This document shows positions 3,700 through 26,835 of a DNA stretch of 64,000 nt, piece by piece (the stretch's first letter is position 1; every line of letters starts with the position of its first letter). The translations under genes were made by a program, and so were the position numbers. This DNA comes from Raillietiella orientalis (lineage: Eukaryota). Under the pieces are notes generated by a model. It worked only from the letters and a program-made list of their open reading frames with translations, was not told where the DNA came from and searched no databases. The stretch lies in the NCBI GenBank assembly GCA_036172245.1, contig JAYWIR010000002.1:5766001-5830000 (forward strand). The letters run 5' to 3'.

Positions 3700-5300
3700 A
3701 TTGTTCTTGTATGTTTCCGTTTTTCATCTAAATATTGAAATCTTTTATCCTTTTCAGCATTTCCTCCTAATTTTTCAAATTCACATGATAGCTCTTTTCT
3801 TTCTATTGCTCGTTTTTTTGTTCTTTTTCTAGTCTCTTCTATTTTGCCTAATTCCTTAGGGTTGGGTGCATGACAGTTGGTATGCTAGTTCCAGCAATGA
3901 CGATTGCACTTGGAGCTCCCAAAATTTTATCTATTTCAATTTTTCCCTTCTGCCTGCTATTCTTTTAAAATCAAAAGAGCATTTGTTTATTTTCGAAATA
4001 AAAAATGGGAAAATGATTCTTTATTTCCACAGACATTCAAATTTTAATATAATGGTTATTAATATAATGGTTGATGTAAATATTGCGCCTTACGAAGATT
4101 CAAATTCCCTTTTTAATTTAATCTACATAACAACCTAACTTATTTAAGCAATTTAATTTTATTACAAAACATGAGAAAATATTTTCGACGAGCGATGTAC
4201 TAGAAATAAAGTGATTGAATTATTTTCAAGTATAATCGGAAATGTATTATTTTAAATTAATAGTGTATTTTTTACTGTTAGCTGTGACACAGATAGAGTA
4301 GATAAAATATCTATTAAAACAGGAAATGTAACTTACACAAATAAAATGTTTAGCATCTTTCGGCATAGAAAACATAAAAAGACACAAGAATTATATTATA
4401 ATGATTATTGAATATAAAATGAAATCAACCAATCCAAAAATGATAATGACAATTTTAGAACACGATTCAGAGCTTTCATCAAAAACCAGCTGATTACGAA
4501 ATGAATTTATTTCAGACTTGAATTTTTACATAAAAATAGAATTTTTTGTAATATATATTTTCTTGAATTTACAAAATTAAAACATTAAATTATGAAAAAC
4601 ACCCAATTTTTAGAAGAAAGTGCCGAAAAAGAATACCTTAAAATACTAGCAGGAAGAATTGGTAACAATGAAATAGAGATCCATGCTAATTCTTCTAATT
4701 CTACATAAGAAGGAATTGAAAACAAGCAGTTACAAAAATAATCATCTCCAATATAAAATGAATATATTAGCAATGGATTTTGAAATTTTTATTCCTTTTA
4801 TAAATAGAGGGGATTGTAAATATCAATTCATTAAGCTGAGAATATGAAAGGATATGTATAAAATGGGAAGATATAGAAAATTACTTAGATAATAATTTTA
4901 ACATTTTCTTAAAAATCATCATTCATGAAAACATTCAAAATTGAGTTGAAAATAATATTAATTTTATAATGAAGAAAGTATTAGGTTAGTTGCTAATATT
5001 AAAAAAGAAAATGTTGATATATGTAAGAAAGAACCAAAAGATAAAAAGCGATATTCTACTCTTTATGTTAAAAAATCCACAATAGGAAGAATTAAATTTT
5101 TTAGCAAAAGAATTAAATGCTCCACAAGGATATATAATTGAGTTATTATTAGAGGAATTTGAAAAGCAATATTCTCAATTTTAGAAAAGGATGAATTATT
5201 GAAAAGAAAATAAATAAAAATACATCGTAACATATAAGTTATAAATAAAATGTGGTATATAATATAAATACATCACAAAAAGTGGATGGTAATTTATCAA
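3700..5300 (+). other. Very AT-rich island with decayed coding frames, possibly foreign (symbiont, plasmid or organelle) DNA
   Basis: Abrupt compositional shift. Frames 4332-4580 (83 codons) and 4804-4989 (62 codons) contain no internal TAA/TAG, only TGA. Confidence 0.45.
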
Positions 5301-8300
5301 AATGCTGTAATATATTTGTCTCTGTTTAAGAGAAATTTAACAAAAAGTGGAAACACTATAGCTTCAGCAGCCGTGTGTTTCCGTAAACAATTTTACCCTA
5401 TTTTCTCGACTAATTTAGAGCGCTGCCTTTAAATCATTTGTAAGGTATTTATCAAGCATAATGTTTGTGGAAATAATGCAGCAGCAGGTGCTATTTCCAC
5501 CTCATTTCATTAGAGTTATGATAACTCACTGAAATATGAAACAATCATCATAAGTAAATAAACGTAAAAAAAGAAGTGGTAACACTGATACCATTCTCTT
5601 ATACACCTACCAAGGGTCTCACAAACCATTTGTTGGAGTTATGAGATTTAGATGAACCACTCGTTGGTGGTTGTTCTTGGTGGAATTATACCATTTTCTC
5701 GCATCATGTGCGTGGGTAGAATGGGGAAAAAAAAAAAATAAAATATGGTGCCACCCATTTTTTCGCTTAGTGCGAAGAAGATAACAACAACGACAGATAA
5801 AGAAGTGCCAACAGAGCCGTCAAGAAAAAAATATGAGAGGGAAAATCCAAAATGGAAGCACTCGAGAAACAAAGAAAAAGGAACTGATTTCACAGTTTAT
5901 CGAAAGAAAAACAGGAAGAATATAAAAGCGCAGTTGCTACTATCAAAAAAGAGCACAACCTATAAGAAGGAGGTGACATTTAGAAGACAAATACACAAAA
6001 AATGAATCATCATACCATCAACATTGATAACCACCCTTATAAAATGAGAAATCAGTTGGGTAGTGAGAAAATATCCCAAATTTTTATTAACCCCCCAAAA
6101 TTTGTCAAACCCCACCCTGCAAGTGAGGATAAAGTCAAAGAGTATGACAAATTCAGTTGTGTGCCAAACAAAATGTGCTTCTTGGATGAAACTAAGAAAC
6201 ATTATTTATTGGGACTGGATTTGTTCTTCCCCTGCTGAATTTATAATACTAGCGATAATAGTAAACACCGTTAGCAGGATACCAAGTCACTGAAGACACG
6301 GCCATTACACGGCCGCATTACTGAGCGTTGCTTTGCCAAAGAACAAGAAAACAACCCCTTCTGAAGTGCTCGCACGAACTCGCAAAGACATTTCAGAGAA
6401 GGCCAAGAAGAAGAAGAAAAAAAAGAGCAAATTGCACTGCCTTTATCAAAGTGAAATTTGCTGCTGATGCTGCAAAAAATAGGTTCCTTAGGCAAAAACT
6501 TAAAGGTTTGGTATGCGGCCTGGATCTTTCTCACAGTCATCAATTTCTTTCTCGGTTATGATCCCAGAAATAACGAGGCTACATCTTCCGACATCTCTTT
6601 CTTCATCAGCTACATCTTGCACTTCGAGGGCCAACTTACAGCATTTTGCGCCATTTGGTCAAGAGTTAGAGCAGCAATTTGCATGAAAAACTGCTTATTT
6701 CTATCATCATTGCCCTTAGGAAGTTCTGTTGACATGAAGGAAGCATCTCCCATGGGAAATATTCCTTGTCATTAAGTAAACCTAAAATATATGCCATTAG
6801 GATTGAAAAAGTATCAATTTTATTACTGAATGACTTTTCTGTTTTCAACTTCTAAAGCTAATCGAGCAACCAGGTCCATTTGAAGCAATTGAAAAAACAT
6901 TTTCACCTTTCAGGCTAATGGCTTAATTAAGCATATATTTCTGTTTAAGGAGACATTAAATTTCAAGCTAAATATATCCTACATATTAGCTAATAAAGTG
7001 ACAGGTTTACAAGAATTAAATTATTACTATTCCATAATTAACCACTAATTAACTGAGTTTAAAATGAATGTCAAATTTTTTTTAACTAAAGCAACCATTG
7101 TCCTCTTGGCTTCTTTGCTGTACTCCAACTACTGCTAACGTCCGTGTAGCTACAGTGTAGGCCTTTTGTACACTTTGGGTAACGATAGTACTTCCGTTGC
7201 TTGAACTACTAGGCTGCCACCCCCCAGCAATTGTTTTTAGCACCAACTTGCCCGTTGCCTACTGGAGAGGTATCGGCGTCGGTGCTGGTTTTGGTGCAGG
7301 CGCTGGGTGAAAGAGATCCTCCCAGGTGATTACATATGAAATCATGGAAAAGGGAAAGTCCAAACCACCCGAACGAACGGACAAAGAACTCACCCAACTC
7401 CTCCAAGGCTTGCGCGAGTTATAACCGAAGGAACCGAACCTCACTAGGAAATAGCAAGCAAGAGTGCATATGAAAGAAAGGCACGTGGACCGATAAATAA
7501 TCATAGTAGGGGTATGATTTTCATGTCCCCTCTTTCACTGATGTCTCATCACAGGATTTTTTTTTGCCTTTTCTTCCCAACGCAAAAAAAAAAAAAAAAT
7601 ATCAAATTCAATATCGTATCGAAACAACAACAACAACAGCAAAAAAAAAAAAAACATTCGAATATTTCTACGATGAAATTCGACTAAATTAATGTACAAT
7701 TCACACGTAAACATTTGCTAAGGAATAGTAATGAATCTGTCATTTCGCTCAGCTGCGGAAAAATGAAGCTTTTGGCCCCCCGGGCAGCCGTAACCCCGCG
7801 CTCTCAGCATTGCCTTTTCCCGGGCACGGCTTAACGCTCCCTTTTCCCTCATCCTTTCTTTTCGATTTTTTTTTGCTCTTTTCTTGTGGAAGAGGGAAAA
7901 TGAAGAAGCCGAACAAAAGAGAAAAGAAACCGCTGGGGCGCTGCATCCCCTGCGGCAGAGCAGATAAGAACTGTGGACGTGATTAACCGTCGGGAACATT
8001 TGAATTTAGAACGGGTCGCGTCGCTATCGGACAAAAAGAAGGGAAACAACAGAAACTCATTTGGCCATATTCGTCAAGAAGAAATTGGCAACAGCTAATA
8101 ATAAATGAACTCGCAAAAGAACGGGCAACACATTTTGGGGTCGCACACTCAAATTGAGTGTATTCGGATTCATTTTCAAGAGTTGGGTGAGTCAGGATAC
8201 GTTAATCGAATGGCCCGTGGCGCAGGATGACATTACAGAGTGCCAAACCGAAGGGTGGGTTAAAAAATTGAAACCAAAAGAGGGAAAGCGGCAGCCTCAA

Positions 8301-9489: not shown

Positions 9490-10050
9490 GAAGAGGGAGG
9501 GGGGGAATTGTTCCAGGCATAAGCCTGGGCGTATTCGTCCATCTTTAGGAGGATGTGGCAGTACGTCCAGGCTGGGGCCCTTCCGCAGTTCCTAATTCCG
9601 ATCTCTTTCTCCTATAGCCCTTTCAGGATCTGCCATGCCGGCACTCTTCGTCCGGATTTATGGATCTTTGCCCTTCTGATCAAAATCGCCGTGATGAAGA
9701 GGGCAAGCGTGGTCAGTACCATCGGGTTGTACAGGGGGAACGATTCCGTTCCCCTGAAACAAGCTCTCCAGAATTTCCCTTTTCTTTCTTCTCTGAAGGC
9801 CGGCCACTGCCCTCACCGCCTGCCAATCAGGTCGGAGCGTGGGGCCGGCGAACACGTGGAGTTGCTTTTCTTCCGCTCCACATGCCTTGCTGGGTCCGTC
9901 CTGGATGCTCCCGGTCCAATGCCGCAATCTGGAACCACTCGGAATCCCTCCGTGATAGAACAACAGGAGGTCGTCCTGAGTGTCCGGCGGAAGGTCGCTC
10001 CTCAAGAGTGCAGCCCCTGCCGCCCGCACGTTTGCGTGCGCAGGTTCGTA
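9490..10050 (-). mobile_element. Tx1/L1-like ORF2 3' fragment, paralogous to 8960-9345
   Basis: KACGAEEKQLHVFAGPTLRPDWQAV and ILIRRAKI..ILKGL*EKEIGIRNCGRAPAWTYCHILLKMDEY. Confidence 0.65.
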
Positions 10051-13728: not shown

Positions 13729-15689
13729 CTGGAAGAATCCAGAGTAACTTGAACAAGAAATCAGAGCCCATTCCAATTTTCGTCCCATTGGTGTTGACAG
13801 GCAACCATCGACCGCAAGGCAGGAAAACGACGAGGGCTTCTCCCAAAGACACGTTTGGCAAGGACGCGGCGGTGTGATCAGGGACGTCTTACAGACAGAG
13901 GCCGCGAAATCTCCGAGAAATTTAATCGAATGTCAAGGGAGATCAGGAGGACTTCCGGATTCGTGAAAGGCAACACCATAAGAAATGCGATTCTGTCATC
14001 TTCAGCTCTGTGGCAAGTGTCAGATGCAGAGGAGAATGGCATTGCATTTTTGATTGGGTGCACTCGGGAATAATTTCAAAGGATAAAGAGGCTGTGGCAT
14101 TCGTGAGGTTCATTCTCCGTCATGGGGGGTTCGCACACTCCTTCGATGCCAGCGAGAAGCATGAAGGGTGTCAGATGCAGTTCGTCTCTTAACGCAGTTT
14201 TTTGGGTGGAAAATGCGGCAAGGAGGATCCAGAAAGATGCAAGCTGACTGGGTACGTAAGCCCTACGATGCAGATGACGAGACTGCCTCCTCCTTGACAA
14301 TTCCGAGATCCAAAACACGTTTAAAATGTGCTGCAGCAAACGTATGCAAAAAGAGATTGAGAAAAGTTGCAGATTAAAAGATTTCTTTTCCGAGAGCAAT
14401 TTTCACTTAGCCTTTTTTAATCAGTTGCTTGCAGTCAAGAGGGGAGAATTTTTCTCATCTTTTTCTCTAAGTGAATACTCGAAGTCGCTAGAAGCCCTGG
14501 CACGAAGCTCCATAAGATTAAAGTGGTGTGTGCATCGGAAGGATTGATTTCATTCTGCTCAACAAACACAGCGCACCTGCTGGGACGTGCTGGCTACAGT
14601 TTTCCTCCCTGGGGAAGCGGACTGCTAGCAATGTTAAAAGGGACTCCCGGAAATTGGAGACGCTCCCCATCGGAGTACCGACGTGGAACACGAGTGAGCG
14701 ACAGGAGCTACGGCGTTGCTCGGCCATCTACAGGGCAACAGGTTCTTGTTCCGTGGATTCCAGGAGCGCAGAATCAGGAAACCAGTTTGCTCCCTAAGCC
14801 TCCTCCCTCTTTTTTCTTTTTCGCTCTGAGGAAGCAGCGTCGTGTTGGCGAGGCTGGTCGACGACTCGCCTTAGGTGCTTCTTTGCAGCTCGAGGGCACC
14901 GTTGCAGGTTGGGCCTGCAGTCTGTCAGGGCTCTATTGCGATTGGTGCGCGAGTGCAGTAGGTGAGGGATGCCCACCCCTCAGCAGTGAGTGCCTACCAG
15001 CCGAGAGGCACCGTCCCCAGCTCCGAAGAAAAAAAAAAAAAAAAACGAATTCACACCTCCGAATTGGCTCGTTCGAGCGATTTCGCAGCTGCCAGCAACA
15101 TTTGGCAGTTTCTTCGGGTCAACATCGGTTGACAGCTTTGGAGCACACGATGTTTTAATTCGGAGGTCACGAAAACAGCTGCACCCTCTGACGACTGATT
15201 CGCTAGTCCGATGGAGGTCATGAAGTGCGAGGCAGGAAACTTCTGGGTGCCCCCCGGGCGTCACGCAAAACGCCCTCGGTACTCATCGACGTCCTTCGGC
15301 TGAGCGCCGAGATCGCCTTCGCGTCGGAGGCGCGTCGTTCTTAAACGAGCGGATGGAACCTCAGTTTGCTGCCTCCGCTTTCGTTCTCGTGCCTTGAGCC
15401 AAAGGGTGGATCCGCCTCTTACGAGTGATCTTCGACAGTCATCCCCACGGAGGTGTGCTGCTCATGTCGGTCGGAGCGCTAAGGTCATGACCTCCCACTT
15501 GACGCTCAGCAATGCCTTCTGCACGGCTCTGGAGTGCACTACACACTGGCGGCATCCGTGGTTCCCGGCGGCAGGGAAAGTCCAGTACGAAACTCCCGCG
15601 TGGGGCGTTCCCGGGTCCTTCAACACGCTGAGACACTCTGACTGTGCGGCCGGAAGAGAAGAAACGCCAAAGTCATCTTCCAAGCATCG

Positions 15690-16115
15690 CATATACATAC
15701 ATACATATATGAACGTGTGTATATGTATGCATGCATACATATATTATGTATACATATTGATATATATAAGAAGCACATGTACTTATTTTTAATAATGTTC
15801 AATACATTATCAACAATGTAATCAATAACTTCTTAATATTATTAACAAATGTATGTTAATAAATCTTGATAAATACATGTATATATATGTTGTATGTATA
15901 CATGTGTGCATATGCATACGTATACGTGTGTATGTTTATGCATTCATCATATGTGTGTGCATATCTATATATGTATATATATGCATATGTGCACATGTTT
16001 ATATATTCTCATATGTATATATTTATGTACATGTATTAATATGCATACATGTATATACATAAACACGTATACATGTATATGTGTGCGTGTGCAAATATAC
16101 ATATATATTAAGCAT
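15690..16115. repeat. Degenerate (TA/TG/CA)n microsatellite
   Basis: Long alternating purine-pyrimidine tract (tatgtatatacatg...), interrupted by a short AT-rich unique stretch at about 15785-15870. Confidence 0.9.
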
Positions 16116-16129
16116 ACGTTTATTTTCTG

Positions 16130-17000
16130 TGATCTTTCGGGATTTTGAACCAGTCTCCTCTACACGATTCCTGAGGGTCTGCCTCATACTGAGCGGGGAG
16201 TGGGGTAGGGCTGCGTCCGCCGGTCAGTGCTCCCCCACAGTCAAAGGTGAAGAGGTGGACCAGATGCGAGTGCTTCAGGAATGTTCTGCCACCCTGGACG
16301 CAGCCTTCCGCATCCCGACAGCACGGGTCGGAGCGTCTCCGCCATCCTGCGGCGGGCATTCCTGGAGCCCACCACGCTGGGAGACGTGGTGGCGTTCCCG
16401 ATCACGGGGTGAAGCCCAGTGCACCAACAAGATGGCGGCCCGCTGGCGGTGGGGAGGGAAGGCTGCCAGGAATCCCGGAGCACGAAATCTGCTGGGCGAG
16501 GTCGCCATCTGGCGAGTGTGCTGGACCACACCGGTGGGGAAGCTGTCCCTCAGCGTCTCCTCTCGAAGGTCTCCGAGTGGATCCGCCTACGGGAAGATGT
16601 AGGCAGCTGTTGATCGAACAGAGAGACGGCCGCTCGCAGCACACGGTCGGCGCGTGCGCTCCTGCATCTCCTGTTGCTACAGCTACGTTTTTCTTTCGGC
16701 ACCGTCAAGGGTGCTCTGGGAGCGTCCGTGAACCGGAGCTTCCGACCCAGCATCCGCAAATTCGAGTCTTTGGAGGAGGTTTGCGTGGCCGCGCGCGGGC
16801 GGACTACGGAAAGAGTCCGGCACACAGTCGCCGCCGCTTCGCGCCGCCCCGGTCACGAGCGGTCCATTCTCATCTGCGGTCCCTGCCGATCATCGCTGGC
16901 TCTCGTTCCTCCCGGGGAAAGCTGTGGCTCCCCACGCTCGGTCTGTTTTCTCCCTCCGTCTCTCGCAGTCCTCGCAGCAACGCGCTCTCTCTCCCCGCAT
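16130..17000 (-). mobile_element. Decayed Tx1/L1-like ORF2 3' fragment
   Basis: AAILLVHWASPRDRERHH resembles LLLQHWGLPCNARRHH of the 25.3-kb copy; AETLRPVLSGCGRLRPGW resembles ETLxHxLxxCxxLRPxW. Confidence 0.55.
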
Positions 17001-17438: not shown

Positions 17439-17955
17439 CCGAAGGTAATCCAAATAAGGCAAAGTTCAATTACTTTGATCAAATCAAAGGTAATTAAAAT
17501 TTGCTTTCAATAGGAGACTTGGTCCTTCCATAGCTGCATGCGACTGGGGCGATGTGTGCTGCTCGTGCACACCACCCTCCAAGTCTTCCTGGTTCTCTCC
17601 CTTCTCTCATCAGCAGAACCATTATTAATGCTGTTTTCATGCTTCTCCCCCGCCAATTACTCTTTGTCTCCCTGCTGCCGAGCCCCCTCGATTTTCACGT
17701 GACTGGGGATCCGAGACGGTACTTCCATCACCCTCGACAGGCAAATCACCGCTGGCTCCTCTTCTCGTCTAACCTGCTGCTCCTCCCTCGAGATCCCATC
17801 CTCGAAACTTTGCACGAAACATCGATTCCGCGCACGAAGAAGGCACCTGCGTTCCTCTGCAAGGAACGCGCGACTTCGAACCGTCCGGACCCACGCTGCC
17901 CTGCGCCACGCGGCAAGACCCGTGCTGGTCGAGCACGCTGGCGTCACTCCCAGGG

Positions 17956-18647
17956 TTTTCACCCGGTGACGCCGGGTCGTTTATTGAAAACAAAAATAAG
18001 CAACAAGTCAGAGAGAGACAGCGTATCCCCCCAGAGAGGGATGGTCCCCTTGGAAAACGAAGTTCATTGGGGATGACCACCAACCAGCAAGCAGACCAAC
18101 TTCTAAAAAAGTAGGGAACGGAGGGAGAGGTGGTAAATAAATTTAAAAAAAGACGGAAGGGTAGGGACAGGGATCTTTGGTTTTCATTCCTTCCTTTCTT
18201 CTAAGAAACGGCTGCGCATGGTGGTAATCTTACTGACGACTCCTGGAAGACGGAGCCACCTTGCAGCCGTCCACATCGAGGTTGGTGACCTCCCTTCGCT
18301 GCGAACGAGACTCCATCACGGCTCGGGCTGCGACGGTGGCATGGATGCAACATCTCTCTGTGATCATGGAGCCCGTCTTCAGCCTTTCTCGCGTGAAGAA
18401 GCACCTCAGCGAGTCCGAAGCAGGAAGGGGATGGGGGTGGTCCAAAGGTCGGCGAAGTGCCGAAGCAAGTCGCCGTTGTGTGTCCTCCAGGGCGCTACAG
18501 TCCAGCAGGAGATGCGGGGACAACAGTTCGGGGAGACAACTCTCCCCGGAAACGAGGTGCCTGCGCCCGTTGCACCGGAATCCCCAGTCGAGCCCAGAAG
18601 AGGAACTTCAGAGAGAGCGACCAGGTTTCGGATTGCGTTGCTGAGCG
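17956..18647 (-). mobile_element. 5'-truncated Tx1-like insertion with 31-bp flanking direct repeat
   Basis: SPHLLLDCSALE zinc-finger remnant; 3' terminus AATAAACGACCCGGCGTCACCGGGTGAAAA; flanks 17920-17950 and 18648-18678 match at 29/31 positions. Confidence 0.8.
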
Positions 18648-18789
18648 CCGTGATGGTCGAGCATGCTGGCGTCACTCCAAGTCCAACCTCAGAGCACCTG
18701 AGCAGTAACCAGCCGTCCAAATGGGAGGTTCGATGTACAATTTAAGAAGTAACGAAGATATTAGGTGACTACACCACAGACCAGCTAAC

Positions 18790-19400
18790 ATAACCCGATT
18801 GCAACTACAAGTGCCCCACTGAAAGGAATATTGTGCTGGGGTGAGCTGCTGGGAATCCCGCAGGAAGACCTCGAGTGGCCCTCAGCGCTGAAGAAAAACC
18901 GGGCCCTCTCACTGAAATAGCAAGAGTCGGCACTTTTGCTGTTGCACTGAGGCCTCCCGTGTAACTCTCGCAGGTCTTACTGAACCCGGAGGGCTGTGGA
19001 TCCAAACTGTTGCAGGTGCGGAGAACAAGAATCCCTCCCACACCTGCTTGCAGACTGTGCTGCCCTCCGGTCTCTGTGGTTGCGTAACGGAACGGCTCTT
19101 GGTGCACCGACGGACAATCCCAGGGATGTGATGAAGCACCCCTTTGTGTGCGATGCTCTTTCGCCTGCCGCATGCCCAGCAGCTCTTCCCTGTCTACATG
19201 AGGTCGCGGCATCCTGGAGCTACGCGAGAAGAGGACTGCACGATAAAAACGCCATCTGCTTCACCCTGTGCTTCCTGAAGACGGCAGCTAGATGGCCCCA
19301 CCTGAAGCATACTCGGATGAAACTTGCGGGCATCCCGGAAAGGATGCAGAGGATGCCCTTCAGCAGACAGCGATGCCTTCTCGTGCCCCCCGGAGTTTTC
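18790..19400 (+). mobile_element. Tx1-like ORF2 3' fragment (CCHC zinc finger)
   Basis: ORF 18996-19409: DPNCCRCGEQESLPHLLADCAALRSLW...RWPHL...LAGIPERMQR. Confidence 0.85.
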
Positions 19401-19419
19401 TTTTATTGACGTGCATTCA

Positions 19420-22200
19420 ATTTTTAACTTTGTCTGCTCATTCCATGAAAGCCAACCTGTTCCTTGCCAGCACATGGTGGTCGTTACAACAGCGCCATGC
19501 ATCGACGGGTCAAGGGAATCATGGATTCTCTTCTGACCAGGGAGGAGAAGGCCAAATAAGAACGGACGCGTCAGAAGCCCTTGCAGTTGCAGTCGATTTG
19601 CACAAAGCTTCCGATTTTCACCCGGGTTTTGCCGGGGCGTTTATTATAAAAACAAACTTTAACAAAGACGTGCAGTGGCTGGACCATTGCGCCAGCCACG
19701 CACAAAGAAACACTGAGCCTGCCGGGTCACCGGTTCGCAGACCGGTACGGTCCACCACGGCAGCAGGGGAAGGGGGGAAAAAAAAAAAAAAAAAAACTAA
19801 ACAAAAAGAAAAGAAAAAGTGGAAGGGTACGGGAAGGGATCACTGTTGCTGCTGGGGCCGTTGCATCCTTCGCAGGATACCGGCAAGCTCTTCTGAATTC
19901 CTGGATCCAGATGGGGCCACTGCGATACCCTCCTCAAAAACTCGGCGGCGTGTTGGATGGCACCCTTATCGCGAGGTCCTCCCGCAGTCTTGCTCCAAGC
20001 GGCGACGATCCCGCGTAGGCAGCACAGGGCTGCTAACGAGGCCGCAGGCCGAAGGGCATCGGCAACGAAGAGGGCTTTCAGTGAGTCCCTGGGATTGCCG
20101 CAGGGGTACAAAGCTTTCGACTGCATCGACCAGGAACTCCTTCTGGAGCTCTTGTAACGCATAGGATTCCCGACTGTGTTTCTGACCTATCTGCGCTCCC
20201 GCTAGCACTTCACACTAATTAATATTTGTTTCAGTGGCCGACACGTGTACGGCGTGCCCGTTCACCGCGGCATAAGTCACGGTCTCTGTCCCCCTGCTCT
20301 TCAGCATCTACTTCGAGTTAATGCTGAGAGCATACAGGGAGATTCTGGCAACCCTGACGAGCTCGTGTTCGCACATGCCTGCCGTGTCGGCCTGCGCGGA
20401 TGATCTTCTGCTGTTACCCTCCATGTCTATGCTGGCTCCTGCACTTGAGGACTTCTTTGAGCTGCTCAGCCGTGGGACGGGCCTGGAGGCGAGCAGGACG
20501 AAGACGTCAATAGTTCCAGTTAGTGCGGTGCGGGCCGGTTGACCGTACTGGATCTGCATGGAAATCTCCAGGAGCGGGTACTTCAAGGACCTTGACGTTC
20601 TGTAGGGGAACTTCTGCGTTACAGAAGCCTGGTCTGGCCATCTCCAAAAAGTGGAGATAGAGCTTATCCCATCCCAGAACGGCAAGTTTTACTTGCAGGA
20701 ACGGACTGCGTTGAGGAAAGCGTTTGTGGCCCCCCTCCTCCGTCCCCAACTTTTTGCTTCTCTCTTCCCACCCAACATCAGGAAACGAACTGAGGGCTTC
20801 CTGAGGAAAGCCCTCTGGAGAACAGGAAAGTCCCGAGTTCGCTTAGAAGACTTGAGTGCTACGCGTAAGGATGGTGAAATGGGCTTCCTTACGCTGAAGA
20901 GAATGGGACGTCAGCCCCAATTCCGAAGACTCGCCTTCGTGGCGAAGTTTAGGACAACTCTCTCACCAGAAGAGCAACCAGCTGCGAAGGATTCATCTCG
21001 ATCTTTGTGGCGGACGACACCATCTGAGGCAATGTGACCATTAGCTGCGTTGATTGGTTGTCTTGGTTCAGGAGAACATCTGGATCTCCTGCCTCCCTGC
21101 GAACTGCACTGCCTGGCTTCAGGAGTCAGTTTCAGCATGGAGAAAGATCCACGGCTCGAGCGAGGCAGGGTACGCCTGTCTCCGGAAAGGAAGGTACTCT
21201 CGACAGCTCCTGCGGAAGATCGTATGCAGCCCACGTAAGCTGTTATGAGCCTCGTTCACTCCCCTTGCCGCAGTGCTGCCCTCCCTGAAAAACGCTTGGG
21301 GCAGAGACCTCCCGGCAAGATGGGAAGTATCCTGCTGTATCGAAGGCAAGGAGGGGATAAAGTTTTAAGCGCGTGGACAACTCGGCATCTAGCGGACGCT
21401 GCGACCCCGAGTGTCGCGCCTAAAGGACTTCTATGCTGGGGTGAGCTGCTCACGATACCCCTGGAGGAGGTGAAGTGGCCCCCAGCGCGTTGGGACAGTG
21501 GCATCCTCTTCCTCAAGTGGCAAGAGTTGGAGTTGCTAGTGTTGCATTAGGGAATCTCATTCACGCCTCCATCATTGGACACTTGGGCGTGTGGATGCCA
21601 ATTGTCATCGGTGAGGAAAGGACACTTTCTCTCACTTATTAATAGACTGTGTCGGCCTCCGAGTTCTTTGGGATCGACTCTCGTTGATCCTTAAAATCCC
21701 AGTAGGCGACCCTAATAACATTTTCGGGCGCCTCTTCATGCGTGATGTCCCGCCACCAGCCACATCTCTAGCAGTTCTCTGCCCTGTGCGCGCAATCGTG
21801 GCAAACTGGAACCCCCGAAGAAGAGGCCAGAATAGCAGGGATGCCATCCATTGGACGGGAATCTTCTTGAAGACCTTTCCCGATGGCCCTAACTGCAACC
21901 AAAGAATGCGGAACTTGTTGGCATCCTGAACAGGATGCAGAGGACGTTTCGAGGCAAACAGTAATCCCTTCCCGCTCTTCTTTCCCTGAAAAACTCCCCT
22001 CCTCTCTCTTTGTCTTTTTGTTTGGTTTTGTTTGGTTTTCCCTACTCCTTCACCTCTGGAAAGGGCATCACCGGTCTACGTACCGGTTTTTGGTAAGCCC
22101 TTCGCGTGTGGCAAAACCAACTGTTCCACCACGATTTTGCACACATCACAACTTTTTTTATAATTTTTTATAAAAAATGCCCCGGAAAATCCATGTGATA
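19420..22200 (+). mobile_element. Tx1/L1-like element, RT to 3' UTR, pseudogenised and interrupted at the KAFD motif
   Basis: ALAVAVDLHKA|KAFDCIDQELLLELL, SPLLFSIYFE, ACADDLLLL, RKALWRTGKSRVRLEDLSATRKDGEMG, LKWQE..LVLH, HLLIDCVGLRVLW, then a T-rich 3' UTR and terminal tgccccggaaaatccatgtga at about 22178-22198. Confidence 0.9.
19615..20107 (-). mobile_element. Nested antisense 5'-truncated Tx1-like insertion 1
   Basis: Encodes GNPRDSLKALFVADALRPAASLAALCCLRGIVAAW..QWPHLDP plus 3' UTR; flanked by acaaagcttccga (19602-19614) and acaaagctttcga (20108-20120). Confidence 0.9.
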
Positions 22201-23972
22201 AACCTGCACCAGAGGTGGACGTGCTTTTTGTTCACTTCACAGTTGGTAGGCTTTTTAGTACGTGTGATGTGTGATTCAGCAGCTGTTGGAAGGCAGAGAT
22301 GCCTGAAAACTCCGCTCGTACTGGCAAGGGAGACGTGAAAACCACATGTCCCCAGTCAATGGAGGTGGGTTCCCGCTCTTCCTCCCACTGAAGCCTCCCC
22401 CACTACCTCGGCGAGGGCGTGGAGCGCGGTGACTGCTGCAGCAACGCCAAAAGTCCCTGTTGAGATCCGGGCCTAACTTGAGGAGAGCTACAATATGGCC
22501 ATACTCTATAAGGAGCGAACATTTACAAATTCCCTACGTAATTTGGACATACAGGATAAGGAGATAATAGGCCTCTTTATACGGAGCGGGGATCAGTTCG
22601 CGGAGCTGGTCTGCAAAGATGCAGGCCTGTCTCATCGACTGCTCTGCACTCCCGTACATTTTGAGGGATGAAATCTCCTTCCTTACACGGTGGATCGCTC
22701 CACTGTGATCCACCTTACCGGTACAACGCTGTGGATGCCTGAAAATGCAGTCCGCAGTGAATTGGAAAAATTCAGCAATGTGGAAGAAGCCCAATGCCTT
22801 CGGTATCAAAGGGGCATTCAGTGGGCTCGTCGCAGCACGCGTGGCAGTGCGCGAAGGATGCGAACTTCCCCACAAACTAGAAATCGGCAATGAATGTGTC
22901 GATGCGTGATATGTGATGAAACCGAAATATTGCGGGCGATGCGAGACGTTCAGGCATTTCAAGAGGAGATGCCCGAACTCGGAATGGCCAACGTGCGGCG
23001 GGAAGGGACACAAGCGCGGTGTGCCCCAAGAACGTCGCTACTCCGCCGCAAGCCCCGAAAACGATGGAGGAGAAGGAGAAAAATAAAAAATAAAAAAACG
23101 CAAGATGACCAACCGCTAGCACACGCCAAAGTAGCTCGGCAAAAAAGGGCGACCGAAAAAGAGACTCCTAGACAGGCTGTCGACGAAGAAGACTATCAGT
23201 TGGCTATGTCCGCCAGAAAAGAGGCGGTGTCCGCCTGGATGCTCGACTCCTCGCTTGAAAGCGTCCCACTAAGCAATAACACGAATTCAACCATCGACAG
23301 AACGCGCCCGTCCGAGACACATTCCGTTGAGGTGGACAACAACCATCCGCCTCCCGAACAAGAGACGGGAATCACAACGCCACCATCTCTACAGTGATGC
23401 GTGGACTGGCCTCTTGCCGGCGATTGTGCGGAACCTTCTGGAACGTCAACGGGTTGCGCGACGGCGACAAGAGGAGAGAGGTGGCTACCACCCTACGAGC
23501 CTTCGATCTGGCGTTTCTGCAAGAGACGCACAAGCTCAACGCAGGAGTCCAGGAAATCGAAAGGATCTCAGGTGGTTCGTATGCAGTTCGGTCCACTCGC
23601 GCGGAGTGGCCTTTCTGCTGAGGCCAGCCGTCGAAAATGTCCTTCGCGACGTGCAGTTCGACAGGAAGATCGAGTTGGACAGCTTGTGGTCAAGTGGTCC
23701 TACTCGATCGACCTCGTGGTCACGAACGTGTACGCGCCCAGCGGCAATCGGGTCTACTTAGAACGCACGACGCTCTATGGGGGCCTGAGGCGCTACTGGC
23801 TGGCCGAAGCGGGCGTGCGGAGAGCACACTTGATAGCCGGGGACTTCAACGTCCGGTGTCCTTCAGGAACTGTGGCGGAGGCGGGCAGCAGCACTCCTGC
23901 ACCAGGAGGACATCGCTCGAGATGTGCTGCGAAGGTTCTTCTCACCGAGAGGACTCACGACTGGAGGGGTGA
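22200..23972 (+). mobile_element. 5' part of a Tx1/L1-like element: ORF1 remnant plus AP-endonuclease domain of ORF2
   Basis: ORF1: VIHLTGTTLWMPENAVRSELEKFSNV, CGRCETFRHFKRRC (22931-22972), PTCGGKGH. APE: FWNVNGLRD..DLAFLQETH, RGVAFLL, VTNVYAP, LIAGDFNV. Confidence 0.88.
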
Positions 23973-24800
23973 TTTCACACCCAGGGTGCGCCGGGGAGTT
24001 TATTCTCTTACAGGAATCGATGGAGCCGATGGCCCACCAATTCCAATTATTACACTAGAAAGAAGGGAGGGAATGGAGAGGTCCATCATGTCCACGAAGG
24101 AGAAGGGGGAAGAAACAAAAATAGAAAATGAAAACAAACTATAACAAGCAACAAAAAAAACCAAAAAAAAACACAAATTAGTTGCAAGGAAGGGGAGGGC
24201 ATCATTTCGTGGTGCGTGAAGCCTCTGCATCCGTTGAAGGATGCCAGCGAGCTCCTCCTTTTCCCTTAGTTGAGGCAATCTCAAAGCTCTCTGCAGAAAG
24301 CGGATGGCCTGCAGGGCAGCCCCCGATCGCTCCAACCTCTCTCGACGTCGCACTTCGCCGCCACGACACCGTGCACGCAGCACAGAGCTGCGATTGCGCT
24401 GCGGCCGTCATGGCGTCCCGCACGAAGAGGGGCCTCAAAGAGTCTCTGGGATCGTCCATGGGGTGAGGAAGGGACGCGGAGAAACGTTCCCACTATTCCC
24501 GGAGGGCGGCACATTGCACTATGAGGTGGAGGAAAGTCTCCTTCTCTCCACACCCGGCACAATTCGGGGATGCGCTTCTTCTCCTCCATTGGTGCGGGCG
24601 CGCATTGCACGGAAGACCCCAGTGCAGTATCAGCAGAGCCGATTGCTGCCACTTGAGGGGAAGCAGCTTCCTGTCTAGAAACACGGAGGGCACTTCCAAC
24701 TCTTCGGGCTGAATGGAGACGAGTTCGCCCCAACGTTCCAGTCCTTTGGAGGCGCTGAGATCGCCACCATAGGTTGCATTCGCGCCATCGTCACAACCCC
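23973..24800 (-). mobile_element. Antisense Tx1-like 3' fragment joined into the APE domain
   Basis: LPLKWQQSALLILHWGLPCNAR..NCAGCGEKETFLHLIVQCAALRE; 3' terminus AATAAACTCCCCGGCGCACCCTGGGTGTGAAA. No matching TSD found at the 5' side. Confidence 0.85.
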
Positions 24801-25071
24801 AAATGTGCTGGAGACCGCCAAGTAGCGGAGGGATGTCACTATGATGGCAGCCACCTACATCGGCGCGACTTCAGGGTGGCATCAATTGGTGGCTCACAGT
24901 CTCCTTCGTTTCTTCGTAAAGAAACGAAGGAGATCACCAGCATACAGCGCCAGTTTACGAATGGTTAGGAAGGGCTGAGCCCGGTCACCTAGGTTCCTTT
25001 TCTTCCTTGAGGGGAAGGAACGGACGCGTCGGGAGCCCTTGCAGTCGCAGTCGACTTGGCAAAGCTTTCGA

Positions 25072-25088
25072 TTTTCAATTTTCACCCG
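25072..25088 (-). mobile_element. 17-nt extreme 3'-terminal remnant of a Tx1-like insertion
   Basis: Reads CGGGTGAAAATTGAAAA on the minus strand, matching the family terminus, and sits between two copies of the target sequence. Confidence 0.65.
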
Positions 25089-25103
25089 GCGCAAAGTTTT
25101 CGA

Positions 25104-26012
25104 TTTTCCCCGGATTTTGCCGGGTCGTTTATTTTAAAATAAACTTTACAAGAAGATGTCAGTGGCTGTAGCAATGCTTCAGCCACGCACGAAGAAACAC
25201 GGAGCCTGCCGGGTCACCGGTTCGCAGACCGGTGCGGTCCACCAAGGCAGCAGGGGGAAGGGGGAAAAACAAAAAACTAAACAAAGAGCAAAAAAAAGAG
25301 TGGGAGGGTATGGAAAGGGATCACTGTTGCTGTTGGGGCCGTATCATCATTCTCAGGATGCCGGCAAGCTCTTTCTGTATTAGCGGATCCAGATGGGGCC
25401 ATCGCGACGCCCTCCTCAGGAATTGGGCGGCGCACTGGATGGCCTCCTCATCGCGTGGTCCTCCCGTAGCCGTGCTCCATGCGGCGACGATCCCGCGAAG
25501 GCAGCACAAGGCCGCTATCGAGCCTGCTGGCCGAAGGGCTTCGGCAACGAAGAGGGCTTTCAATGCGTCCCTGGGGTTCCCGCAGGGGACACCGATGGCC
25601 GCGGCAAAGCGGAACCAAAGGGGCCGAAGGACAACACAATCCACTAGGATATGGGGGAGGGACTCCCGTTCCCCACACCTAACACAGCTGGGATCGACCG
25701 CTCCCCAGGTCCAGTGGTGTCGGCGGGCATTGCAGGGGAGTCCCCAATGCTGCAACAGTAGAGTCGACTCCTGCCATTTTAAGGGGAGAGTGGAAGTGTT
25801 CATGAGCACCGGGGGCCACTTCAGACGTTCAATCGGAACATCGAGCAGCGCTCCCCAGCGCAGAAGTCTATTGGGAGGCGTACTCGGGGTCTCAGCGTCT
25901 GTTAACTGGCCCGTCTTCCACTCTTTCTGCTTCTTCTCCTTTCCGGAGATGGTTGCTTTAACCTCTCACTTCGCCGCAACATCGCAGTCCTGATCTTCCA
26001 CTAGGGAGGCCA
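25104..26012 (-). mobile_element. Nested antisense 5'-truncated Tx1-like insertion 2
   Basis: ORF 25321-25809 (LPLKWQESTLLLQHWGLPCNARR..CVRCGERESLPHILVDCVVLRPLW); perfect 15-bp TSD gcgcaaagttttcga at 25089-25103 and 26013-26027. Confidence 0.93.
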
Positions 26013-26154
26013 GCGCAAAGTTTTCGACTGCATCGACCAGGAACTCCTTCTGGAGCTCCTAGAACGCATGGGATTCTCGGTCGTCTTCCTGGACTATCTG
26101 CGCTCCTGCTGGTGCGCTAATTAACATTTCTTTCAGCGGACGGCAAGTGTAAGC

Positions 26155-26835
26155 GCAGAGGTTCCTTGTTTACCCCTCTGAAGAGAGCCCCAAAGGGGCG
26201 CTTCCCAATTTCTCTGAAGGGCGCTCCCCGAAGGAAGAATCGCACTTCACACTCCGGAGAGGCATCAACCACCTACATGGAGGGCGGCCCATTTGCACAA
26301 CCGGAGGGGAACCCCAAAAGACTCCTTGATTCCTGGAAGGGTCACAGAGGTTCAACTTCCAATTCCAGTCAGTCGATGGGGGAGCGTGCTTTCCGAGTTG
26401 TACCAGTTTCGCACCCCCAGCACAAGGTGATCCCTTCCTGACCCCGCTCCCTTCCCATTTTTTTTGGGTTTATGTTTTTTGTTTTATTTTTTTTTCTTTT
26501 TGTTTGTCTCTCCTTCCCCTGTGCTGCCGAGGCAAACCCCTCTGGCCTGCGTGCCAGTTCCCGACAGGTTTCTTCTCGTAGTTATAAGTAACGTGGCAGG
26601 ATCAAATGTCCTACCGCCTACGTGCATGCTTATTTTATAAATAAATGCCCCGGCGTGACCGGGTGTCAACCAGTTCCGTACCCGAATACGTCAACCAGCG
26701 CTATCTAGCGAAGGGACTCGAAACCCACGATGCAGCCCCCGTTCTCCGCGTCGACTTTTCTCCGGGTGGGATTCGAACCCGCGTCTCTTCGTACCGCGTG
26801 CGGAGACTGCAGCCACGCGGGTGCCAACAAGGGCC
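26155..26835 (-). mobile_element. tRNA-headed element (B-box head plus LINE ORF1-like body), copy 1, interrupted
   Basis: GGGTTCGAATCCC B-box (complement of 26768-26780) with a second B-box-like unit at about 26712-26725; body is homologous to the 36.5-37.35 kb and 57.0-57.87 kb copies. Confidence 0.65.
26417..26668 (+). mobile_element. Tx1-like 3'-UTR-only insertion inside the tRNA-headed element
   Basis: T-rich tract, stem-loop and terminus aataaatgccccggcgtgaccgggtgtca; flanks accagtttcgcaccc (26402-26416) and accagttccgtaccc (26669-26683); the 57.7-kb copy is uninterrupted at this point. Confidence 0.8.

Follow-up and report, generated by a model that had tools for sequence, protein, structure and literature searches.

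A nested LINE cluster in which the RT codons of relatives are the probable landing site of a site-preferring LINE

Site-specific LINEs such as R2, R1 and Tx1 are natural models for programmable, break-free gene insertion. Those known so far are directed at rDNA, small-RNA genes, microsatellites, telomeres and a few transposons. The locus described here raises the question of whether the RT codons of one LINE can be such a target for another. Within the window (the whole 64 kb stretch of DNA that was analysed), a decayed LINE cluster contains three antisense landings at the same base of the KAFD codons in two related LINE copies. We consider it probable that one APE-type LINE in this nested cluster is site-specific or strongly site-preferring, with the RT codons of its relatives as landing site. 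As part of this reading, the host sense strand was probably nicked at TTCGA^C by that LINE. If true, a lineage aimed at the RT KAFD codons of another LINE would add a new target class and clearly show transposon lineages of one genome in direct competition. The way in which an APE-type endonuclease reads DNA could then also be tested on a recognition site that is short and defined (about ...CAAAGCTTTCGA^CTGCATCGAC...). Such a target is hard to mutate away because it encodes a catalytic motif. The sample consists of three events, all inside one 64 kb window, and should a genome-wide count not bear the reading out, the locus would be just an unusual local nest.

Insertions at the KAFD codons of two hosts

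Both plus-strand hosts, A and B, are broken after ...AAAGCTTTCGA and before C, in the KAFD codons of RT motif A, as read directly from the junctions. The features of host A are as follows.

19559..19614, plus strand: host A RT segment just 5' of the nick (RTDASEALAVAVDLHKASD), 88.5% identical to host B over 61 bp
19602..19614, no strand: TSD copy A1, ACAAAGCTTCCGA, junction read directly
19615..20107, minus strand: insert A, 493-bp 5'-truncated LINE 3' end with the last ~75 ORF2 codons, the 3'UTR and the terminus AATAAACGCCCCGGCAAAACCCGGGTGAAAA
20108..20120, no strand: TSD copy A2, ACAAAGCTTTCGA, junction read directly
20108..22200, plus strand: host A from RT motif A (YKAFDCID) via RT motifs B-E and the zinc-knuckle C-terminal domain to the 3' end

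Across its junctions, host A reads ...gtcgatttgcACAAAGCTTCCGA, then ttttcacccggg...(insert A, 19615-20107, 493 bp)...gcaggggt, then ACAAAGCTTTCGActgcatcgac. The TSD is 13 bp with one mismatch (12/13), and the site in the host frame is AVDLHKASD / YKAFDCIDQELLLELL. Further downstream, ADD is located at about 20390-20400, the C-terminal zinc-knuckle domain at 21350-21930 and the 3' end at about 22180-22200; host A is decayed by stops and frameshifts. A plus-strand ORF of 290 aa spans both insert A junctions, for which a protein word search found no match among proteins of near length, nor any for its residues 90-150 among shorter proteins.

Host B was hit twice.

25017..25071, plus strand: host B RT segment 5' of the nick (GTDASGALAVAVDL, 1-nt deletion, then KAFD)
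25059..25071, no strand: TSD copy B0, GCAAAGCTTTCGA, left copy of the stub TSD
25072..25088, minus strand: stub insert, 17-19 nt, extreme 3' end CCGGGTGAAAA plus TTGAAAA; earliest event in host B
25089..25103, no strand: TSD copy B1, GCGCAAAGTTTTCGA, right copy of the stub TSD, mutated C>T, plus stub-derived bases; reused as insert B target
25104..26012, minus strand: insert B, 909-bp 5'-truncated LINE 3' end, C-terminal ORF followed by 3'UTR
26013..26027, no strand: TSD copy B2, GCGCAAAGTTTTCGA, identical to B1
26013..26151, plus strand: host B 3' of the nick (KVFDCIDQELLLELLERMGFSVVFLDYLRS); homology to host A stops at about 26151

The successive segments here are ...gtcgacttgGCAAAGCTTTCGA, ttttcaattttcacccg(gc), GCGCAAAGTTTTCGA, ttttccccgg...(insert B, 25104-26012, 909 bp)...ggaggcca and GCGCAAAGTTTTCGActgcatcgac, and the site in the host frame is KAFD / KVFDCIDQELLLELLERMGF. 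The stub (17-19 nt at 25072-25088/90) has a reverse complement, CCGGGTGAAAA, identical to the insert A terminus, and a TSD of 13 bp (12/13). The TSD of insert B is a perfect 15 bp (15/15), or 18 bp with one mismatch (17/18) when stub-derived bases are counted. As this TSD includes stub-derived bases and a C>T change not found in B0, insert B is younger than the stub. Its open C-terminal ORF comprises 214 codons (25321-25965) with a zf-RVT-like zinc knuckle.

These junctions bear out the initial annotation, which had described minus-strand, 5'-truncated LINE 3' ends nested antisense at KAFD with TSDs of 13 and 15 bp, at the coordinates listed above, and a third short insertion at 25072-25088, which is the stub matching the insert A terminus. 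Its assignment of the target to RT motif A agrees with the KAFD host frames, and AAAGCTTT and TCGA are palindromic, as it had pointed out. In six frames of the window, both K[AS][FY]D sites are occupied (2/2). All copies assigned to the insert lineage adjoin KAFD (3/3), as do three of the five minus-strand relatives in the cluster, the other two (M1 and insert C) lying elsewhere.

The elements and their relatives

With CCGGG(T)GAAAA as common terminus, variable 5' truncation and flanking TSDs, the inserts (493 bp, 909 bp and 17-19 nt) are identified as LINE copies made by target-primed reverse transcription. Host and insert have 37-48% aa identity in the C-terminal domain and common 3'UTR hairpins, in support of the earlier placement of both in one broad family. 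Twin priming was ruled out as their origin, as host and insert each have their own 3' end and their proteins are only 37-48% identical.

Formal RT support for the host is weak because the host is decayed. The region 20276-20560 of host A scored E 0.12 against RVT_1 (12.5 bits, cut-off 29.6, in decayed sequence). Scored with a profile of six LINE RT segments, the KAFD piece of host B ranked first among 2291 six-frame pieces (E 0.042) and aligned at profile positions 100-129, which is the KAFD position. The host motif order, read by eye, is KAFD...RGxxxG...ADD, and comparison of the host RT piece with PDB sequences gave chance matches only (E 1.7 or worse). For insert B, the match to Pfam zf-RVT had an E of 4e-5 (24.6 bits, cut-off 27.5), and zf-RVT is present in the Atlas clusters nearest to it. 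A profile built from six C-terminal domains of the window retrieved 68 proteins at E<=0.001; in the three full-length hits that were checked, Exo_endo_phos, RVT_1 and zf-RVT are all present.

In the window, the insert lineage is represented by 5'-truncated copies without RT or endonuclease, and an APE domain is seen only in the neighbouring element X (Exo_endo_phos, E 1e-4, 22.5 bits, just under the cut-off of 24.5). This element and the two remaining minus-strand relatives are listed below.

17954..18647, minus strand: M1, distant relative with 31% aa identity to insert B, terminal CCGGGTGAAAA identical; non-KAFD site
22477..23980, plus strand: element X, ORF1 with CCHC knuckle plus the N-terminal part of the APE endonuclease domain
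23978..24880, minus strand: insert C, a relative whose 3' end (...CCCTGGGTGTGAAA) adjoins the APE region of element X; approximate 5' limit

M1 lies between the copies of a direct repeat of 34 nt (91% identical), and its terminal 11-mer is identical to that of the insert lineage. Since M1 and insert C are at non-KAFD sites, site specificity is not a property of the whole family.

The one close protein relative found, P0001 (87 aa, E 8e-26), comes from an environmental contig of 2870 bp. The insert B ORF had no match among longer proteins in a protein word search, and 598 pattern matches in metagenome contigs included no relative. An exact 24-mer of the insert 3'UTR had 0 matches in metagenome, genome and viral contigs, and a search for related loci in viral contigs based on P0001 found no relative. 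When inserts A and B were aligned with P0001 for a further search, three loci, L001-L003 (one bacterial, two viral), came up at 35-42% identity over ~50 residues. They were put down to chance similarity in a stretch rich in Ala and Leu, and the extended frame of L002 has four stops. tRNA and Rfam scans of the window returned nothing, nor did Pfam on seven long ORFs elsewhere in it, and a full-length profile built on distant relatives had too little power for annotation of the linker regions in the cluster.

Choice of the site and independence of the events

The proposed mechanism involves one APE-type LINE lineage of L1/Tx1-like build, with an ORF1 carrying a CCHC knuckle, an APE endonuclease, an RT and a C-terminal zinc knuckle, which would insert by target-primed reverse transcription with a strong preference for DNA encoding RT motif A (DLxKAFD) of a related LINE lineage. 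The junctions show the host sense strand to have been broken between TTCGA and C within the Asp codon of KAFD, and all three 3' junctions on the plus strand are ...TCGA followed directly by TTTTC. They likewise show a new copy joined antisense at the nick via its 3' end ...CCCGG-loop-CCGGG(T)GAAAA, with a second, staggered break 13-15 bp upstream giving rise to the TSD. The copies are mostly 5'-truncated and appear to record at least three separate events in the two hosts. In host B, an abortive first hit left the stub, after which the intact right-hand target copy was struck again. The specificity may reside in the endonuclease of the element, perhaps with help from read-through RNA, whose sequence past the element (UCGAAAGCUUUG) is complementary to the target end at the nick. 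LINE RT codons would offer many copies of a landing site whose use does no harm to the cell and which the hosts' own activity renews.

The case for going further is evenly balanced: the lineage may have long kept a specificity dedicated to the motif-A codons in the RT of a sister LINE lineage, so that rivals form a self-renewing landing pad and each hit destroys a rival polymerase gene, with read-through RNA, through pairing with the palindromic target, as a possible guide. The synonymous divergence between the two source elements is ~0.4. The initial annotation had suggested such benefits as well, namely a self-renewing safe site, the destruction of competing copies and perhaps antisense RNA against them.

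A guiding RNA could also account for the specificity as such. Read-through transcripts of a KAFD-sited source copy, with the tail UCGAAAGCUUUG..., would anneal to KAFD sites that are nicked or breathing in other LINE copies, and would steer priming there. As to the course of events, this proposal overlaps with the preferred reading; the difference lies in the means of site choice. On its sense strand, each insert is followed by a sequence exactly complementary to the priming end CAAAGCTTTCGA-3', and the 3' tail varies at the junction (GAAAA vs GAAAATTGAAAA in the stub). Co-transcription with the target is said, in an excerpt of PMC4494074, to strengthen R2-type target-specific integration. However, a nick at one phosphodiester bond in three events would still need a positioned endonuclease, and we regard guidance by RNA as unlikely.

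Dedicated specificity would be superfluous if the endonuclease favoured a short common motif (e.g., TTCGA/C or a bendable palindrome) or if the cluster were a regional insertion sink, the repeated hits reflecting the abundance of LINE RTs among such sites. The target core is indeed short and palindromic, the sample is tiny, and M1 and insert C are at other sites, yet inside or adjoining LINE sequence. All five minus-strand copies sit amid plus-strand LINE sequence; therefore, a general nesting or orientation bias of the cluster may be at work. A short motif would, however, offer very many sites, yet all three lineage copies (3/3) are at the identical base in the same orientation, and in host B the second hit fell on that TSD copy in which the native downstream context is retained. 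The single orientation of all three despite the palindromic core argues for a longer, asymmetric recognition sequence. We hold this explanation to be quite unlikely.

Returning to a site-preferring LINE, the three KAFD insertions look independent rather than copies of one nested locus, to judge from the letters at their junctions and within the inserts. Both A TSD copies carry AC...GCTT and both B TSD copies GCGC...GTTT; since these bases are host-specific in both copies, each TSD derives from the host in which it lies. The inserts are truncated at different 5' points (insert A 493 bp, insert B 909 bp), and the A end is not a deletion product of the B end. Over 87 codons, inserts A and B have 21.5 synonymous differences at 65.7 sites and 19.5 non-synonymous differences at 195.3 sites, which gives a dN/dS of 0.25 (Fisher p 5.7e-5) as compared with 0.9 and 2.55 in the two wrong frames. 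Among all 90 aligned codons, 18 have synonymous changes only, 16 change the residue and two contain gaps. This low ratio indicates that the source elements diverged under selection and not by neutral decay of one dead copy. The insert 3'UTR is 88.4% identical, above synonymous-site conservation. The synonymous pairs given in the initial annotation are real, those of the inserts (CCT/CCA, GCG/GCA, GCA/GCG, CTG/TTG) in the codon alignment and those of the hosts (tca/tcg, gtt/gtc, gat/gac) on reading the host stretch, and its view of independent events gains support from the TSD states, the truncation points and the insert dN/dS.

One ancestral nested locus, a host with its antisense insert, might alternatively have been duplicated segmentally or co-amplified as a dead composite, and then have diverged by mutation and deletion. 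Insert identity (83.9% over 510 bp) is close to host identity (88.5% over 61 bp, 79.4% over 141 bp), so a duplicated composite would yield a like pattern of similar pairwise values (hosts 79-88%, inserts 84%). The loci are 5.5 kb apart in one repeat cluster, and the host dN/dS (0.39, 44 codons, p 0.078) is not significantly below 1. Nevertheless, duplication would require two or more positions to have changed in parallel in the two TSD copies of a single locus, and a deletion in A ending precisely at the insert/TSD boundary. Neutral decay predicts an insert dN/dS of ~1 rather than 0.25 (p 5.7e-5), the flanks are non-homologous outside three short aligned blocks, and the stub and insert B would still be two hits at one host B site; we hold such a history to be very improbable. 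Hosts A and B are identical over 37 nt across and downstream of the nick vs about 80% overall, and their flanks upstream of 19560 and 25018 could be aligned neither with each other nor with any 3'UTR of the cluster (top z-score 2.3). Chance is not plausible as a cause because the three insertions share base and orientation in two homologous hosts; a 20-mer spanning the junction is expected 0.01 times per window.

Comparison with known systems

Zepp of Chlorella and DIRS-1 of Dictyostelium are retroelements that, as here, pile into their own kind; new Zepp copies are added to the tail region of older ones, DIRS-1 relies on a tyrosine recombinase, and neither is known to use one exact base of an RT motif. 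Zepp is listed in a table of PMC3747384. In trypanosomes, the LINE ingi and its SINE, RIME, enter one conserved site in the coding region of the RHS multigene family; passages of PMC7563717 place it, as here, next to the codons of a conserved (ATP/GTP-binding) motif and report that many RHS members become pseudogenes. RHS is, however, a host gene family and not a retrotransposon. R1 and R2 of 28S rDNA also cleave a conserved multicopy sequence at a single exact base and occupy many of its copies, with repeated or tandem hits and extremely truncated copies at one site, and read-through RNA may aid their priming (excerpts of PMC4494074 and PMC1919474). Their target, unlike that described here, is a cellular multicopy gene, and R2 has a restriction-like endonuclease.

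The nearest parallels are Tx1-clade LINEs, for which a preference for other transposons, LTR retrotransposons included, is documented in portions of PMC4494074 and PMC6719617. According to these, Tx1L and Tx2L of Xenopus and the crocodilian Tx1-Mar, Tx1-9_AMi, Tx1-8_Crp and Tx1-4_AMi target the piggyBac-type Tx1D, Mariner-N4 and Harbinger, with LTR retrotransposons as targets of two families. Like the lineage described here, they are, in the same portions, APE-type, enter a specific position in another transposon family and leave short TSDs and 5'-truncated copies. Here, in contrast, the target is the RT motif A coding sequence of a related LINE, entered antisense, in a lineage with at most a putative place in the Tx1 clade (described, in a partial account, as an animal group). 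The initial annotation knew of no precedent. This stands for the LINE RT motif, which would be new as a target and on which no paper was found in the literature; it does not stand for other transposons as LINE targets, already published for the Tx1 clade (excerpt of PMC4494074), nor for a hot spot in coding sequence, given ingi and RIME in RHS genes (passages of PMC7563717).

By the working criterion of Kojima, as worded in part of PMC4494074, a LINE is target-specific when >20% of the flanks of a family lie in one kind of sequence. For 3' termini of the insert lineage, the KAFD-site flank is ...TCGAAAGCTTTG. The 3'UTR block around window positions 19722-19745 could be used as a probe for the lineage.

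The LINE cluster and its family

The window is eukaryotic DNA with a GC content of about 50%, and a tRNA scan and an Rfam scan of its 64 kb gave no matches. A nest of decayed LINEs that belong to a single broad family occupies about 17.9-26.7 kb. Self-BLAST, tblastn searches with ORF pieces taken from the window and motif scans served to locate them.

LINE pieces of the cluster (coordinates, strand, description)
17954-18647, minus: M1, a distant relative
18800-19400, plus: P1, C-terminal part
about 19559-22200, plus: host A
19615-20107, minus: insert A
22477-23980, plus: element X, whose ORF1 carries a CCHC knuckle, with the start of a putative APE endonuclease
about 23978-24880, minus: insert C, another relative
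about 25017-26151, plus: host B
from 25072, minus: stub, 17-19 nt
25104-26012, minus: insert B
26665, plus: additional LINE 3' end

All minus-strand copies of the cluster are interspersed with plus-strand LINE sequence. The 5' region of element X directly follows the 3' end of host A on the same strand (about 22180-22210), which makes a head-to-tail LINE pair, and insert C lies antisense within the endonuclease region of element X. Outside the cluster, a very distant C-terminal LINE fragment is present at 9736-10008 (minus strand), with about 32% amino acid identity to insert B. The GC content falls to 0.34 at 4001-8000, and a low-complexity TG/TA-rich stretch at about 15700-16150 is visible as Cys/Ile/Tyr-rich frames.

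The family assignment draws on several matches. A candidate zf-RVT-like zinc knuckle stands at the C-terminus of insert B (E 4e-5) and insert C (E 7e-4), the nearest Atlas clusters carry zf-RVT, and element X gave a candidate Exo_endo_phos match (E 1e-4). A profile built from six C-termini of the window retrieved 68 proteins at E<=0.001; the three full-length hits that were checked (1250-1259 aa) all combine Exo_endo_phos, RVT_1 and zf-RVT. The sole close relative of the family C-terminus among 1.84 billion representatives is P0001, a protein of 87 aa (E 8e-26). Its source is one environmental contig of 2870 bp, so an uncultured microbial eukaryote, or a relative, carries the family.

The interrupted RT motif A

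The initial annotation held that both hosts are broken in the KAFD codons of the reverse transcriptase. This observation was confirmed, with the junctions exactly where it had placed them. In both hosts the sequence breaks off after ...AAAGCTTTCGA; past the break it starts again with the same bases and runs on into CTGCATCGACCAGGAAC. The KAFD codons at the target include AAAGCTTTCGAC. Read in frame, the sequence at the break gives DLxKAFD|CIDQELLLELLxRxGF and corresponds to RT motif A. The host B piece 26005-26121 ranks first of 2291 six-frame pieces scored with a profile made from six LINE RT segments (E 0.042) and aligns at the KAFD position; it also aligns at positions 604-632 of a full-length profile, where KAFD lies at about 606. 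In host A, RT motifs B-E follow (RVT_1 E 0.12, with a collinear match to the protein P0065), the C-terminal domain lies about 1.3 kb beyond, and the spacing from KAFD to the knuckle fits that of the protein P0002 (about 530 aa). The weak RT scores are explained by the many stops and frameshifts in the hosts. The host RT piece was also compared with PDB sequences, and nothing matched.

Long antisense open frames run through the inserts at 19292-20164 (plus, 290 codons) and 25172-25993 (plus, 273 codons). No relatives were found in searches that compared the 290-codon frame with proteins of similar length and its residues 90-150 with shorter proteins; the frames are best explained by GC-rich sequence rather than by genes.

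The inserts end in AATAAACG(C/A)CCCGGCAAAA(C/T)CCGGG(T)GAAAA, and the stub reads CCGGGTGAAAATTGAAAA. The target site duplications (TSDs) are as follows.

TSD copies
A1, insert A: ACAAAGCTTCCGA
A2, insert A: ACAAAGCTTTCGA
B0, host B, left copy of the stub's TSD: GCAAAGCTTTCGA
B1 and B2 (identical), insert B: GCGCAAAGTTTTCGA

The insert B duplication matches at 15/15 positions, or at 17/18 when read as CC[G/A]GCGCAAAGTTTTCGA (direct-repeat family D6).

Directly after AATAAA, a CCCGG ... CC(T)GGG stem is found in 5/5 family 3' termini, with a different loop in each.

Terminal stems and loops
17962-17976: CGTCA
19621-19637: CAAAAC
23980-23995: CGCACC
25108-25124: CAAAAT
26648-26663: CGTGA

An ACCGGT-N6-ACCGGT hairpin is common to inserts A and B and the host A 3'UTR (about 22068-22086). 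These structures look like the conserved 3' recognition structures of 'stringent' LINEs. The predicted terminal CCCGG/CCGGG hairpins of inserts A and B have fold z-scores of -2.3 and -2.2, and 4/200 shuffles fold equally well.

Independent insertions or one duplicated composite

The two nested loci could be the products of independent insertions, as had been proposed from the sequence, or copies of one duplicated composite. Pairwise identity, which is 83.9% for the inserts (510 bp) and 88.5% (61 bp) and 79.4% (141 bp) for the hosts, does not by itself decide between them. Independent events are well supported by the TSD states, the order of events, the 5' ends and selection. AC and GCTT are common to both A copies of the TSD, and GCGC and GTTT to both B copies; a duplicated composite would require identical changes twice within one locus. 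The TSD of insert B holds bases from the 5' end of the stub, plus a C>T change that is absent from B0. The stub thus came first, then the mutation, then insert B at the right-hand copy of the target, which had kept its native downstream context. The inserts differ in length (493 bp for A, 909 bp for B), and the junction of insert A does not derive by deletion from that of insert B. No homology of the two loci outside three aligned blocks was found in the comparisons made.

Over 87 codons, inserts A and B show 21.5 synonymous differences at 65.7 sites and 19.5 non-synonymous differences at 195.3 sites (dS 0.43, dN 0.107, ratio 0.25, Fisher p 5.7e-5); for the two wrong reading frames the ratios are 0.9 and 2.55. 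Among 90 aligned codons, 18 have synonymous-only differences, 16 have residue changes and two have gaps. The low dN/dS indicates that most of the divergence arose in functional source elements. The hosts follow the same trend without reaching significance (ratio 0.39, 44 codons, p 0.078). The insert 3'UTR is 88.4% identical, against roughly 67% at synonymous sites, and is probably a cis-acting part.

A likely site preference and a possible mechanism

The six frames of the window contain two K[AS][FY]D sites, and both are occupied. With up to 2 mismatches, the 13-mer target occurs six times, as five TSD copies and one unrelated site at 15128, against a chance expectation of 3.1. Overall identity of the hosts is about 80%, against a run of 37 consecutive identical bases (20115-20151 and 26022-26058), third codon positions included, that spans the nick and has 31 of its bases downstream of it. 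This run, which is not significant alone, fits a long recognition site and may mark the recognised sequence.

M1, a LINE 3' end of 694 bp, shares its terminal 11-mer with the inserts (CCGGGTGAAAA terminus), but its protein is just 31% identical to that of insert B. The copy lies between 34-nt direct repeats (17920-17953 and 18648-18681) that are 91% identical and unrelated in sequence; 34 nt is unusually long for a LINE TSD. Insert C adjoins the APE region of element X, not KAFD. Since M1 and insert C occupy other sites, the preference can extend no further than the lineage of inserts A and B. For that lineage, a site preference is rather likely, judged from three events.

No description of a LINE targeting a LINE RT motif was found, a weak absence, as the search covered little subscription literature or Repbase Reports. 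Related behaviour is described for other systems. Tx1 inserts into Tx1D, a piggyBac-type element (PMC4494074; PMC6719617), and crocodilian Tx1 families favour Mariner-N4 or Harbinger, with two families favouring LTR retrotransposons (PMC4494074). ingi and RIME insert at a hot spot within the coding sequence of RHS genes, beside a conserved motif (PMC7563717), and repeated insertion at a single preferred site is reported in Drosophila (PMC5932611). R1Bm and Tx1L-type enzymes are described as having an extended, asymmetric recognition sequence (PMC1919474; PMC4494074).

In the window, entry was antisense. The host-sense strand carries the 3' junction at TTCGA^C, and the staggered second cut lies 13-15 bp upstream; the copies are 5'-truncated and the same site was used again. 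The enzyme may be an APE-type endonuclease whose recognition sequence is extended and asymmetric, in which case sequence information is predicted to reach into CTGCATCGAC downstream of the nick. Read-through RNA might aid priming. On the sense strand of each insert, TCGAAAGCTTTG follows downstream, and the priming end is exactly complementary to it.
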